This document shows, one piece after another, positions 4,088 through 64,000 of a DNA stretch of 64,000 nucleotides. Below the pieces are notes generated by a model, which did no database searches, was not told the origin of the DNA, and was given only the letters and a program-made list of their open reading frames with translations. Every line of letters starts with the position of its first letter. Within the stretch, counting starts at the first letter, position 1. Origin of the DNA: Escherichia coli (lineage in GTDB: Bacteria; Pseudomonadota; Gammaproteobacteria; Enterobacterales; Enterobacteriaceae); assembly GCF_050320075.1 (NCBI RefSeq), contig NZ_CP190018.1. One strand, given 5' to 3'. The position numbers and the translations under genes were made by a program.

Positions 4088-4387
4088 ATGGCGCTTACAA
4101 AAGCTGAAATGTCAGAATATCTGTTTGATAAGCTTGGGCTTAGCAAGCGGGATGCCAAAGAACTGGTTGAACTGTTTTTCGAAGAGATCCGTCGCGCTCT
4201 GGAAAACGGCGAACAGGTGAAACTCTCTGGTTTTGGTAACTTCGATCTGCGTGATAAGAATCAACGCCCGGGACGTAACCCGAAAACGGGCGAGGATATT
4301 CCCATTACAGCACGGCGCGTGGTGACCTTCAGACCCGGGCAGAAGTTAAAAAGCCGGGTCGAAAACGCTTCGCCCAAAGACGAGTAA
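4088..4387 (+). CDS. ihfA: integration host factor alpha subunit
   Basis: 99-aa [55 protein letters not shown]... Confidence 0.95.
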
Positions 4388-4400
4388 TCTGATCTAACTA

Positions 4401-4430
4401 AAAAGGCCGCTTTGCGGCCTTTTTTCTTTT
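4401..4430 (+). terminator. ihfA intrinsic terminator (GGCCGC-TTTG-CGGCC + T-run)
   Basis: hairpin and TTTTTTCTTTT 14 bp after ihfA stop. Confidence 0.7.
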
Positions 4431-4487
4431 CACTGTCGAAGAGTCACCGTAAAATCAACGCCATGACACTTCAGCAGAACGGATACC

Positions 4488-29025: not shown

Positions 29026-29163
29026 CGTGTAATGGCTGCATGAAATAAACAATAAAATATAAATAACATTATCAGCCTGCTGACGGCTTGAAGAGAGTCA
29101 CAGTATCTTGTGCAACATTATTGGAAAGCGTGAGGGGCGAGGTAGCGAAGCGGAAAAATGTTA

Positions 29164-29268
29164 AAAAAAAGCCCATCGTGGGAGATGGGCAAAGACTACA
29201 CACAGCAATTCGTTGTTTCACTCAGGGGATTTCCATGCTTATAAATCAATATGTTGATTTATAACCGT
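29164..29268 (-). ncRNA. rprA: RprA small RNA (RpoS translational activator)
   Basis: minus-strand sequence ACGGTTATAAATCAACATATTGATTTATAAGCATGGAAATCCCCTGAGTG...CCCATCTCCCACGATGGGCTTTTTTT matches my recollection of rprA, including the terminator. Confidence 0.85.
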
Positions 29269-34706: not shown

Positions 34707-34904
34707 TCCTGACTTGATGCCGCAATTTCGCCAAATCGACCTTGATTAACCTCCGTCCAGGTTCGATGGCCTTCTTAATACTGCTTATCTACCCGCCTGA
34801 TATTGTTCAAAAATAATACTAATCGCAGTTTGTGTTAAAACGGCGGGTTAGCTTTATGAGATTATTCTTATCGCCCCTTCAAGAGCTAAGCCACTGAGAG
34901 TGCC

Positions 34905-34975
34905 GGAGATAAGCGCCGGATGGGGTAGAAACCCTTAAGCCTGTGTCGCACAGACTTAAGGGTTTTCTTATTTCT
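34905..34975 (+). ncRNA. rydB: candidate RydB small RNA
   Basis: ydiH-sufA intergenic position where rydB is annotated in K-12; hairpin ACCCTTAAGCCTGTG/CACAGACTTAAGGGT followed by TTTTCTTATTT; 5' end and identity not verifiable from memory. Confidence 0.35.
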
Positions 34976-52635: not shown

Positions 52636-52941
52636 TCAGGCGAGTTTTGCCTGATTGATTTGACTCAGTGGCTCATTGACATCGAAAACTTTGGCGACAA
52701 CTTCCTCAACGCCGAGATTTTTCAGTCGGGCAGTATGTTTTTCCAGATAGGCAAGGGCGCTTTTTTCATCAGTGAAAAGGTAGATCCCACCGGCTTCGTG
52801 GTTCTTTTCACTTTCTGTCCATACCTTCCACAGAAAACCAGGTTCCTGATTAATCGACTCAGCAAGCGGTTCAAGCTGCTCAGCCATTGCGTCGCCAAAT
52901 GGGCCATTAAAAGCAAAATGAAGTTGTAACAAAGTTGCCAT
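52636..52941 (-). CDS. ydhR: putative monooxygenase (dimeric alpha/beta barrel)
   Basis: 101-aa ORF. Confidence 0.85.
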
Positions 52942-53048
52942 AGCGATTCTCCTTCTGATAACGCATACGAAGACAGTGTAAATCTTTTAATGTATTGGAT
53001 ACAGAGAAGAAACAGAGGGAAAAAGGAGAAGACCAGATTAAGAAAATC

Positions 53049-53125
53049 TGGTGCGTCCGAGTGGACTCGAACCACCGACCCCCACCATGTCAAGGTGGTG
53101 CTCTAACCAACTGAGCTACGGACGC
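53049..53125 (-). tRNA. valW: tRNA-Val (anticodon GAC)
   Basis: minus-strand GCGTCCGTAGCTCAGTTGGTTAGAGCACCACCTTGACATGGTGGGGGTCGGTGGTTCGAGTCCACTCGGACGCACCA. Confidence 0.95.
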
Positions 53126-53129
53126 AGGA

Positions 53130-53206
53130 TGGTGCGTTCAATTGGACTCGAACCAACGACCCCCACCATGTCAAGGTGGTGCTCTAACCAACTGAGCTAT
53201 GAACGC
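53130..53206 (-). tRNA. valV: tRNA-Val (anticodon GAC)
   Basis: minus-strand GCGTTCATAGCTCAGTTGGTTAGAGCACCACCTTGACATGGTGGGGGTCGTTGGTTCGAGTCCAATTGAACGCACCA. Confidence 0.95.
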
Positions 53207-59842: not shown

Positions 59843-60775
59843 ATGTGGTCAGAATATTCACTCGAAGTTGTTGATGCGGTAGCGCGTAATGGTAGTTTTA
59901 GCGCTGCGGCACAGGAGTTGCATCGCGTTCCTTCTGCGGTCAGCTATACCGTGCGTCAGCTGGAAGAGTGGCTGGCGGTGCCGCTGTTTGAACGACGTCA
60001 CCGTGATGTGGAACTGACCGCTGCCGGGGCGTGGTTTCTCAAAGAAGGGCGCTCTGTTGTCAAAAAAATGCAGATCACCCGGCAGCAATGTCAGCAGATA
60101 GCGAACGGCTGGCGCGGTCAGTTAGCTATCGCAGTGGATAATATTGTCAGGCCGGAACGTACACGGCAGATGATCGTTGATTTTTATCGCCATTTTGATG
60201 ATGTCGAACTCCTTGTCTTTCAGGAAGTGTTCAACGGTGTCTGGGATGCGCTTTCCGACGGGCGCGTGGAACTGGCGATTGGCGCAACACGCGCGATTCC
60301 GGTAGGCGGTCGTTATGCCTTCCGCGATATGGGGATGCTAAGCTGGAGTTGCGTTGTTGCCAGTCACCACCCGCTGGCGTTGATGGATGGCCCGTTCAGC
60401 GATGATACGTTGCGCAACTGGCCGTCGTTGGTGCGCGAAGACACCTCGCGAACGCTACCTAAACGTATTACCTGGTTGCTGGATAACCAAAAAAGACTTG
60501 TCGTGCCTGACTGGGAATCATCGGCAACCTGTATCTCTGCAGGATTATGCATAGGGATGGTGCCAACACATTTCGCCAAACCGTGGCTTAATGAGGGGAA
60601 GTGGGTGGCACTAGAACTGGAAAACCCCTTCCCGGATTCGGCATGTTGTCTGACATGGCAGCAAAATGATATGTCGCCTGCGTTAACCTGGTTGCTTGAG
60701 TATCTCGGCGATAGTGAGACGCTGAATAAGGAGTGGCTGCGGGAGCCGGAAGAGACTCCCGCAACGGGTGATTAA
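59843..60775 (+). CDS. punR: LysR-family transcriptional regulator (PunR / YdhB)
   Basis: 310-aa ORF with N-terminal HTH, divergent from punC. Confidence 0.85.
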
Positions 60776-61797
60776 CGACGATAGTCGCGGAACGGGCCGT
60801 CAGCCACGGAGCGGCGTTCAATCAACCGCGGATGCACTTCAATGGATTGCGGTTCTTCGCGTTTATTGACGATACGATCCAACAGCATATTGAACGCAGT
60901 TTCGCCCAGCGAATCTTTTGGCTGATGGATCGTGGTCAGCGCCGGCGTAAAATAGCGGGCGTTGCGCACGTTATCATACCCGATCAGCGAAACATCCTGC
61001 GGGACGCGCAGACCCATTTCATCAGCAGCACAAAGTGCGCCCATTGCCATGATATCGCCACCACAGAAGACGGCAGTAGGGCGATGCGGCTGCGACAGGA
61101 TTTGCTGCATGGCGCGATAACCGGATTCAGGTTCAAAGTCACCCTGCACAATCCAGCTTTCCGGCACTTTGATCATCGCTTCTTCCATCGCCTTCATAAA
61201 ACCGGCAAGGCGGCCTGCGCCGGTGTTACGTTCCAGTGGGCCAGGGATAACGCCGATTTCGCGGTGACCGCGTTCAATCAGATAACGCCCGGCCATGTAG
61301 CCGCCTTCGAACGCGTTATCAATGACCGCATCGGTGAAGTCAGCTTTTGCTTCACCCCAGTCCATCACCACCATCGGGATATGGCGATACTCTTCCAGCA
61401 TCGCCAGCAACGGCTCTGGGTACTCAGAACACATCACCAGCAGACCATCGACGCGTTTTTGCGCCATCATCGACAGATAAGCCCGCTGTTTCTCAAGATT
61501 GTTCCACGCATTGCCCAGAATCAGGGTGTAACCTTTCTGGAAGCAATTTTTTTCAACCGCTTCAATGATCTCGGCAAAATAGGCCGCTTCGCTGCTGGTC
61601 GCCAGCAAACCGATAGACTTGGTGTGGTTAACCTTCAGACTACGCGCCACCGCGCTAGGGGAGTAGTGTAATTCTTTGATCGCTGCCCACACGGCGTTGC
61701 GCGTTTCTTCAGCGACGAAACGTGTTTTGTTGATCACGTGTGACACAGTTGTAGTGGAAACGTTTGCTCGTTTCGCTACATCTTTTATTGTTGCCAT
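60772..61797 (-). CDS. purR: purine repressor
   Basis: 341-aa LacI-family [39 protein letters not shown]... Confidence 0.95.
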
Positions 61798-61840
61798 TCC
61801 ATTTCACTCCAGACCCTAACTTCAGCTCCTGCAAAATCGC

Positions 61841-61858
61841 AAGGTAAACGTTTGCCTT
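61841..61858. promoter_or_regulatory. PurR operator (autoregulation) in purR leader
   Basis: AAGGTAAACGTTTGCCTT, good match to the PurR box ACGCAAACGTTTGCGT; a second box-like site GAAACGTTTGCTCG lies in the first codons (61756-61771). Confidence 0.6.
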
Positions 61859-62066
61859 TACACACCTTACGCACAACAAAAGTGTTGCGGTACGCCGGAA
61901 AAACGACACGGAGCGTCAGGAAGGGGTCAATGGCCAGTACGCAAATAGTGTAAGCGTGGAATTTTGGCCGATCTTGACGAAAAGGGGAAGTGGTAAAAAC
62001 ACTTATCATTATAAATGACGGGAGATTTTTTCATCACAGTGTGTAAAAATGCGTAATATCACTTTT

Positions 62067-62075
62067 TGTGTGGTA
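62067..62075. repeat. IS1 target-site duplication, left copy (TGTGTGGTA)
   Basis: identical 9-mer at 62844-62852. Confidence 0.9.
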
Positions 62076-62130
62076 GGTGATGCTGCCAACTTACTGATTT
62101 AGTGTATGATGGTGTTTTTGAGGTGCTCCA

Positions 62131-62406
62131 GTGGCTTCTGTTTCTATCAGCTGTCCCTCCTGTTCAGCTACTGACGGGGTGGTGCGTAACGGCAAAAGCA
62201 CCGCCGGACATCAGCGCTATCTCTGCTCTCACTGCCGTAAAACATGGCAACTGCAGTTCACTTACACCGCTTCTCAACCCGGTACGCACCAGAAAATCAT
62301 TGATATGGCCATGAATGGCGTTGGATGCCGGGCAACTGCCCGCATTATGGGCGTTGGCCTCAACACGATTTTCCGCCATTTAAAAAACTCAGGCCGCAGT
62401 CGGTAA
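62131..62406 (+). CDS. insA: IS1 InsA (transposition repressor / N-terminal part of transposase)
   Basis: 91-aa [46 protein letters not shown]... Confidence 0.95.
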
Positions 62407-62828
62407 CCTCGCGCATACAGCCGGGCAGTGACGTCATCGTCTGCGCGGAAATGGACGAACAGTGGGGATACGTCGGGGCTAAATCGCGCCAGCGCTGGCT
62501 GTTTTACGCGTATGACAGGCTCCGGAAGACGGTTGTTGCGCACGTATTCGGTGAACGCACTATGGCGACGCTGGGGCGTCTTATGAGCCTGCTGTCACCC
62601 TTTGACGTGGTGATATGGATGACGGATGGCTGGCCGCTGTATGAATCCCGCCTGAAGGGAAAGCTGCACGTAATCAGCAAGCGATATACGCAGCGAATTG
62701 AGCGGCATAACCTGAATCTGAGGCAGCACCTGGCACGGCTGGGACGGAAGTCGCTGTCGTTCTCAAAATCGGTGGAGCTGCATGACAAAGTCATCGGGCA
62801 TTATCTGAACATAAAACACTATCAATAA
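62325..62828 (+). CDS. insB: IS1 InsB frame (expressed as InsAB' transposase by -1 frameshift at the A6C motif)
   Basis: 167-aa ORF in -1 frame relative to insA, with AAAAAAC slippery run near 62383. Confidence 0.9.
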
Positions 62829-62843
62829 GTTGGAGTCATTACC

Positions 62844-62852
62844 TGTGTGGTA
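62844..62852. repeat. IS1 target-site duplication, right copy (TGTGTGGTA)
   Basis: identical 9-mer at 62067-62075. Confidence 0.9.
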
Positions 62853-62872
62853 ATAAAAAAGGAGAAAACTTG

Positions 62873-62962
62873 ATGAGCACCGACCTTAAATTTTCACTGG
62901 TAACAACGATTATCGTCCTCGGTTTGATCGTGGCCGTGGGTTTGACTGCCGCGCTGCACTGA
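62873..62962 (+). CDS. ynhF: small membrane protein YnhF (29 aa)
   Basis: ATG with GGAGAAAA SD; product MSTDLKFSLVTTIIVLGLIVAVGLTAALH, single TM helix. Confidence 0.75.
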   Translation: MSTDLKFSLVTTIIVLGLIVAVGLTAALH

Positions 62963-63127
62963 TTTCCTCTCGAGGGAGCGCGTTCTCCCTCGCATCTCCT
63001 TCCTGTTTGTTAGCAAAATGGCAAAAGTGTTTTCTCTTTTTGTTATTTTCATTTTTTTGTGATTGCTGTCATGCTTTCGCCACTTTAATGAATATCGCGT
63101 AATGACGCGAAGAGGTGGAGATAAGGC

Positions 63128-64000
63128 ATGAAAATTAACTATCCGTTGCTGGCGCTGGCGATTGGCGCGTTTGGTATCGGGACAACGGAGTTCTCGCCAA
63201 TGGGCTTGTTGCCCGTCATTGCGCGCGGTGTGGATGTCTCGATTCCCGCTGCCGGAATGTTAATCAGTGCCTATGCAGTTGGCGTAATGGTTGGCGCGCC
63301 GCTGATGACGCTTCTACTTTCTCATCGTGCCCGCCGCAGTGCGTTGATTTTCCTGATGGCGATTTTCACGCTCGGCAATGTACTTTCCGCCATCGCGCCG
63401 GATTATATGACTCTGATGCTTTCACGCATTTTGACCAGCCTGAATCACGGAGCATTTTTTGGTTTGGGTTCAGTTGTGGCCGCAAGCGTGGTGCCAAAAC
63501 ATAAACAGGCCAGCGCAGTTGCCACTATGTTTATGGGGTTAACCCTGGCAAATATCGGTGGCGTGCCGGCGGCGACCTGGTTGGGTGAAACCATCGGCTG
63601 GCGGATGTCATTTCTGGCAACGGCGGGGCTGGGAGTGATTTCAATGGTAAGTCTGTTCTTCTCATTACCTAAAGGTGGCGCAGGGGCGCGACCTGAAGTG
63701 AAAAAAGAGCTGGCGGTATTAATGCGTCCGCAGGTGCTGTCTGCATTGCTGACGACGGTACTGGGAGCTGGTGCAATGTTTACCCTCTACACCTATATCT
63801 CTCCGGTACTGCAAAGTATTACCCACGCAACGCCGGTGTTCGTTACGGCAATGCTGGTGCTGATTGGTGTCGGATTCTCTATTGGTAACTATCTCGGCGG
63901 CAAACTGGCAGATCGTTCAGTTAACGGCACGTTGAAAGGCTTTTTGTTGCTGCTGATGGTGATTATGCTGGCAATCCCGTTCCTGGCCCGCAATGAGTTC
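63128..64000 (+). CDS. ydhP: MFS transporter, 5' partial (runs off window end)
   Basis: ORF begins MKINYPLLALAIGAFGIGTTEFSPMGLLP..., open to the window end. Confidence 0.85.
   Translation, partial: MKINYPLLALAIGAFGIGTTEFSPMGLLPVIARGVDVSIPAAGMLISAYAVGVMVGAPLMTLLLSHRARRSALIFLMAIFTLGNVLSAIAPDYMTLMLSRILTSLNHGAFFGLGSVVAASVVPKHKQASAVATMFMGLTLANIGGVPAATWLGETIGWRMSFLATAGLGVISMVSLFFSLPKGGAGARPEVKKELAVLMRPQVLSALLTTVLGAGAMFTLYTYISPVLQSITHATPVFVTAMLVLIGVGFSIGNYLGGKLADRSVNGTLKGFLLLLMVIMLAIPFLARNEF

Follow-up and report, generated by a model that had tools for sequence, protein, structure and literature searches.

In Escherichia coli YZLc1-3, an intact copy of IS1 has inserted by transposition within the cydH (ynhF) 5′ leader, between positions +19 and +20, and we propose that the gene can now be expressed only by transcription that reads through the element. 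Within the window, by which we mean the whole stretch of 64,000 nucleotides that was analysed, IS1 lies inside the transcribed leader: the cydH promoter and its start site remain intact and now fire into the element, and the ribosome-binding site and coding sequence follow on its far side. We expect CydH to be markedly reduced, not necessarily abolished, and give this reading a probability of about 0.68; the cydH allele of YZLc1-3 is probably a hypomorph.

The element, the gene and its orthologues

The features that define the insertion and the gene behind it are as follows.

62076-62843, plus strand: intact IS1, IS1B-like, 768 bp, with insA and insB′ running in the direction of cydH
62076-62098: left inverted repeat (IRL) of IS1, an exact match to the canonical 23-mer
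62821-62843: right inverted repeat (IRR) of IS1, ATCAATAAGTTGGAGTCATTACC
62083-62110, plus strand: pIRL-like promoter within IS1, CTGCCA-16-TATGAT
62131-62406, plus strand: insA of IS1, 91 aa
62325-62828, plus strand: insB′ frame of IS1, 167 aa
62382: A6C frameshift motif of IS1, AAAAAAC
62067-62075: target-site duplication, left copy, 9 bp, TGTGTGGTA
62844-62852: target-site duplication, right copy, 9 bp, TGTGTGGTA
62860-62864, plus strand: cydH Shine-Dalgarno sequence, AGGAG, 8 nt before the ATG and kept 3′ of IS1
62873-62962, plus strand: cydH (ynhF), encoding a cytochrome bd-I accessory subunit of 29 aa with one transmembrane helix

The element has the properties by which the IS1 family is recognized, namely a length of about 768 bp with 23-bp inverted repeats, two frames joined by -1 frameshifting, and a target duplication. 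The IRL pattern would be expected 0.00 times by chance in shuffled sequence, the InsB′ part reaches 143.7 bits with family model NF033558 (cut-off 100), and the RefSeq annotation records an intact transposase with a programmed frameshift. About 20 copies of IS1 are present in the genome (22 matching places).

The distance from the end of IS1 to the cydH ATG is exactly 29 nt (62844-62872), as the initial annotation had stated, and the 29-codon frame that it described as retaining a Shine-Dalgarno sequence does so. The sequence and the list of open reading frames agree on an ATG at 62873, 29 codons, and a TGA at 62960-62962. The translated product, MSTDLKFSLVTTIIVLGLIVAVGLTAALH, is identical at 29/29 residues to chain H of PDB 6RKO (YnhF/CydH); 6rko_H and seven other structure entries align over residues 1-29 of 29 with an E value of 4.5e-13, and the NCBIfam equivalog NF033411 scores 50.2 bits over the same 1-29 of 29 residues against a cut-off of 30 bits. 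RefSeq record NZ_CP123240.1 names this 29-codon frame cydH and shows around it, in this order, punC, punR, purR (minus strand), IS1 transposase (plus), cydH (plus), ydhP (plus) and sodB (minus). In the annotation of both this strain and K-12 the gene has purR and ydhP as its neighbours and is not part of the cydABX operon, and it has been described as an orphan gene in this sense (PMC6853902). CydH, also called CydY, is the fourth subunit of cytochrome bd-I; it sits between TM1 and TM9 of CydA and closes the membrane-side route to haem b595 by which oxygen enters the Geobacillus enzyme, and the protein is reportedly produced at low oxygen (PMC6853902, PMC8951039, PMC8585947, PMC12648545). Our literature search found no phenotype for a CydH knockout. 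The YZLc1-3 gene encodes the protein seen in 6RKO, in the purR-cydH-ydhP neighbourhood of K-12, with one synonymous change from K-12 at 62932; its leader alone is disrupted.

Orthologous loci were retrieved by a degenerate DNA pattern scan with one genome per species, which gave 60 loci representing 59 other species of Enterobacteriaceae and Erwiniaceae. The genera include Escherichia, Salmonella, Citrobacter, Enterobacter, Leclercia, Lelliottia, Kosakonia, Pluralibacter, Atlantibacter, Phytobacter, Silvania, Erwinia, Pantoea and others, so that the CydH family reaches into the Erwiniaceae with Erwinia and Pantoea. CydH is exactly 29 aa long in 60/60 loci, which hold 29 distinct sequences; the scan pattern itself fixed the first nine residues, MSTDLKFSL, and required GGAG, so the 60 loci do not count as independent evidence for conservation of those residues or of the Shine-Dalgarno sequence.

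Native promoter and transcription start site

Three further features place the start of cydH transcription relative to the element.

62057, plus strand: native cydH transcription start, with a leader of 39 nt at the empty site; 19 nt upstream of the left end of IS1
62042-62050, plus strand: extended -10 of the cydH promoter, TGtAAAAAT (TGTAAAAAT), with a canonical +7 start at 62057
62023-62030, plus strand: block of conserved sequence, AGATTTTT, spanning -34 to -27 relative to the cydH start and unlike a -35 hexamer

When IS1 and one copy of the repeat are removed, the reconstructed intergenic region is that of K-12 MG1655, with no differences; over about 800 bp, the reconstructed locus carries 2 substitutions relative to K-12, one in purR and the synonymous one in cydH already mentioned. 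The K-12 start is RVS-1735608 on the reverse strand of U00096.2, listed as a Class I site by dRNA-seq (Romero et al. 2014, PMC4681348 Table S2), a class defined in that work by enrichment upon TAP treatment and a position at the leading edge of transcription; the companion paper also mentions this ynhF start site (PMC4191395). By alignment, this position corresponds to 1,737,584 in NC_000913.3 and to 62057 in the window, and it describes K-12 in aerobic exponential growth, not YZLc1-3 and not low oxygen. The ROSE supplement and the Salmonella MarA supplement, where independent data were sought, have no entry for a cydH/ynhF start.

TGtAAAAAT is the only extended -10 on the plus strand within 61990-62870. 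Since this element and the dRNA-seq data agree independently on 62057, the promoter and start lie upstream of IS1. The same pattern, TGnnAnAAT, is found in 60/60 loci, of which 59 have it 39-45 nt from the ATG and the other has a single outlier match at 69 nt; in YZLc1-3, 822 nt separate the -10 element from the ATG. The Shine-Dalgarno sequence and the reading frame have been moved 777 bp further from a promoter and start that are themselves untouched. The order of start site (62057), IS1 (62076-62843) and Shine-Dalgarno sequence (62860) is that of a polar leader insertion, with the start taken from K-12, whose sequence is identical here. The initial annotation had proposed that IS1 separates ynhF from its native promoter region, and had named a transcription start within 62844-62872, with unchanged expression, as the observation that would overturn this. 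The start mapped in K-12, which lies outside that interval, and the extended -10 conserved at every orthologous locus bear out the proposal and refine it, in that transcription begins before the element and runs into it.

Upstream of the extended -10, the AGATTTTT block is near-invariant in an alignment of 26 species, and ATTTT[TC] is found in 54/60 loci. A second block conserved across genera, TATCAaT.TAAAT, lies at approximately -53 to -39, both blocks falling within 62004-62030. As neither looks like a sigma-70 -35, the two may serve as sites for regulators relevant to the reported low-oxygen induction. Inspection by eye of the -53 to -39 block gave no convincing match to FNR, ArcA or CRP sites. 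A candidate 5′-terminal hairpin in the native leader (UAUCAC/GUGGUA) was set aside, with a z score of 0.2 against shuffles and arms that by eye show no clean covariation.

Expected effect on cydH expression

From the sequence, neither the 29 bp before the ATG nor the right end of IS1 offers a usable promoter, and with no promoter near the ATG, cydH would have to depend on read-through of IS1. A translatable cydH mRNA would have to start upstream of about 62855, at the cydH promoter or at pIRL, and cross the 768 bp of the element. IS1 is classically polar in both orientations, through Rho, and its InsA protein binds the IS1 inverted repeats. At this locus, InsA supplied by the roughly 20 genomic copies would bind IRL just 3′ of the start, at approximately +20 to +43, and so attenuate read-through; the insB′ RNA beyond the insA stop codon, largely untranslated over about 440 nt, should permit Rho-dependent polarity; and the chimeric leader would grow to about 800 nt, which should be a further attenuating factor. 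Cytochrome bd-I would then be assembled mostly without CydH and its shielding of haem b595. A by-product of the insertion is that this copy of IS1 is now transcribed from the host cydH promoter.

Comparable insertions are known. In the polar IS1 insertions of gal and lac, and in that of osmB in ST131, as here, a full IS1 with its 9-bp duplication lies between the start site and the ribosome-binding site; what sets the present case apart is that IS1 has entered the short leader of an orphan gene, 29 codons long, for a subunit of a respiratory oxidase. Measured outcomes in ST131 differ among genes: with IS1 upstream, the osmB transcript fell about 4-fold, that of ugd was unchanged, and afaA rose strongly only where a good hybrid promoter was formed (PMC8764528). 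Reduced expression of cydH is what we would expect by analogy with osmB.

The ugd result would fit a different outcome, a nearly neutral insertion, in which the cydH promoter, alone or together with pIRL, would read efficiently through IS1, and translation from the long-leader mRNA or a processed form of it would be near normal. Several observations are consistent with this. No intrinsic terminator is predicted on the plus strand of IS1. The untranslated insB′ RNA, 3′ of insA, contains more G than C (C/G 0.6-0.9) and is not rut-like; because it is G-rich rather than C-rich, Rho loading there is not obviously favoured, and by composition read-through could be efficient. The Shine-Dalgarno sequence is predicted to be about as accessible in the chimeric leader as in the native one. 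Finally, host transcription from upstream has been found to cross IS1 in experiments that positioned lacZ as a reporter at its right end and inserted terminators upstream (PMC12428005), although these reporters carried a frameshift-fixed, fully translated transposase gene, so that polarity in the native, untranslated insB′ was outside their test. Against near-neutrality stand the InsA binding and the classical polarity described above, together with two facts about the locus itself: the promoter-to-ATG spacing is tightly kept at 39-45 nt across the family, and none of the other 5,425 E. coli genomes has an insertion here. We regard near-normal expression as rather unlikely. Prediction of Rho sites from C/G composition was tried and proved ambiguous, the only C-rich stretch (62217-62296) lying inside the translated insA; how strong the polarity would be is not predictable from the sequence.

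It is also conceivable that the element brings its own promoter. The inverted repeats of IS1 carry an outward -35, and a hybrid promoter forms if the flanking DNA supplies a suitably spaced -10 (PMC8764528, PMC9330008); such a promoter at the right end, with its -35 in IRR and its -10 in the flank, might drive cydH, perhaps with altered regulation or raised expression. The right end does offer TTGGAG (62830-62835), followed at 16-18 bp by the A/T-rich candidates AATAAA and TAAAAA. However, TTGGAG matches the -35 consensus at 3/6 positions, the best of the -10 candidates at 4/6 and without the T at -7, and the pair together at no more than 7/12. Predicted starts would fall at 62863-62868, at or past the Shine-Dalgarno sequence, leaving an mRNA with a leader of 5-10 nt and no Shine-Dalgarno sequence. 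A promoter scan called nothing at the right-end junction; on the plus strand inside IS1, no site other than pIRL reached 9/12, and none in the right 500 bp reached 8/12. The stronger outward -35 of IS1 (TTGGCA, 5/6) is in IRL, at the opposite end, and faces purR. An outward IS1 promoter for cydH is unlikely because its -35 is weak, its total match is at most 7/12, and its transcripts would begin at or after the Shine-Dalgarno sequence; that a hybrid promoter of this kind actually drives the gene seems to us very improbable. The initial annotation had suggested read-through, an outward-facing IS1 promoter, or silencing. The promoter is disfavoured on these figures, and read-through or strong reduction still stands.

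Comparison with the known IS1 hybrid promoters of blaTEM, acrEF and afaA leads in the same direction. Element and principle are shared, an outward -35 in the inverted repeat joined to a -10 in the flank, whereas the cydH junction has a weak right-end TTGGAG, no good -10 at the proper spacing, and a start that leaves out the Shine-Dalgarno sequence. We do not interpret the insertion as hybrid-promoter activation, because the two features that define it, a -35/-10 pair at 16-18 bp and a transcript that includes the downstream ribosome-binding site, were looked for and are absent. On this comparison, the cydH junction would behave like a polar insertion and not an activating one.

Rarity, significance and neighbouring features

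Among 5,426 complete E. coli genomes, searched with a query across both junctions at a coverage of at least 80%, the insertion is carried by 1. The sole carrier is the chromosome of YZLc1-3 (NZ_CP123240.1), a strain from chicken faeces in Yangzhou, with 100% identity over the 1,331 bases queried. The reconstructed empty site, 392 bp long, runs without interruption in 5,423/5,426 genomes; 5,419 have it at 99% identity or more, and YZLc1-3 alone has it split. The insertion is thus a singleton at a locus that is otherwise extremely conserved. These counts fit an event that is rare, recent and probably not beneficial, and the intact target duplication is likewise consistent with recency. That the finished genome simply has an IS1 copy misplaced in assembly is scarcely credible: the insertion is a singleton and some 20 copies of IS1 may confuse assemblers, but a full-length element with both inverted repeats is flanked here by a perfect 9-bp duplication of a kind that misassembly does not make, the flanks rejoin seamlessly to K-12 sequence once IS1 and one repeat are taken out, and the source record is a complete, revised RefSeq assembly. 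Because a perfect target duplication is the signature of transposition, we take the insertion, as judged from its sequence, to be genuine and not a misassembly.

The insertion in itself matters little. It is an ordinary polar IS insertion in one strain, a single strain-specific IS1 event of a well-understood type; protein and element are textbook members of their families, and what is new is another instance of the classical polar leader insertion. The locus is of more use in other respects, in that it pins the cydH promoter to the extended -10 at 62042-62050 and offers YZLc1-3 as a natural candidate CydH hypomorph. We can further speculate that, since the cydH promoter, which as reported responds to low oxygen, fires into IS1 19 nt before IRL, transcription of insA and insAB′, and with it transposition, has become coupled to microaerobiosis, and that the strain is a natural CydH-depleted mutant whose cytochrome bd-I lacks the haem b595 shield; we consider this combined proposal distinctly doubtful.

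On either side of the insertion, the following features concern the neighbouring genes.

60772-61797, minus strand: purR, the divergent neighbour
61953, minus strand: purR transcription start known from K-12, FWD-1735712 (1,735,712, U00096.2), PMC4681348 Table S2
62971-62992, plus strand: stem-loop after cydH, CGAGGGAG-CGCGTT-CTCCCTCG, with an 8-bp GC-rich stem and no U-tract, not a canonical terminator

The outward TTGGCA of IRL that faces purR is followed, after a 17-bp spacer, by AAAAGT, which has the A at -11 and the T at -7 (62054-62089, minus strand). The predicted start directed towards purR is at about 62054 on the minus strand, approximately 100 nt upstream of the native start. From its sequence, this pair could act as a hybrid promoter of low strength and contribute transcription towards purR that runs antisense to the cydH promoter.

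Downstream, ydhP, which encodes an MFS transporter, begins at 63129, 166 nt past the cydH stop codon. No terminator was called on the plus strand between 62962 and 63129, and the K-12 table lists no ydhP start near that position (PMC4681348). Because the stem-loop lacks a U-tract and does not form a canonical terminator, some cydH transcripts may extend into ydhP, which might then share in any polarity caused by IS1.

The insertion also interrupts a match to an Rfam family. STnc550 (RF02081, 'Enterobacterial sRNA', 388 nt) scores 261.4 bits here against a gathering threshold of 48, with the 3′ third of the alignment running spuriously into IS1 and a second fragment at 62836-62879. Its length of 388 nt is the sum of two stretches, 278 nt between the purR start codon and the insertion point and 110 nt between that point and the cydH stop (61798-62075 and 62853-62962), so that the cydH start falls at about model position 260 and IS1 splits the model at about 278. 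The model thus covers the purR-cydH intergenic region and the cydH frame. Because it contains the promoter, the start site and a coding ORF, we take STnc550 to represent the promoter and mRNA region of cydH and not a demonstrated sRNA; it is named as an sRNA, whereas here it spans a coding ORF and in YZLc1-3 is split by IS1. Our literature search found no mention of STnc550. That an 'sRNA' family appears in effect to be a promoter and mRNA region is a further point of interest of the locus. The other Rfam matches above gathering in the window are the Phe leader, STnc540, RprA (minus strand), rydB (plus strand), HPnc0260 antisense and two tRNAs (minus strand), with coordinates 509-633, 4329-4487, 29161-29268, 34873-34933 and 52925-53206, all of them expected for this region of E. 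coli.
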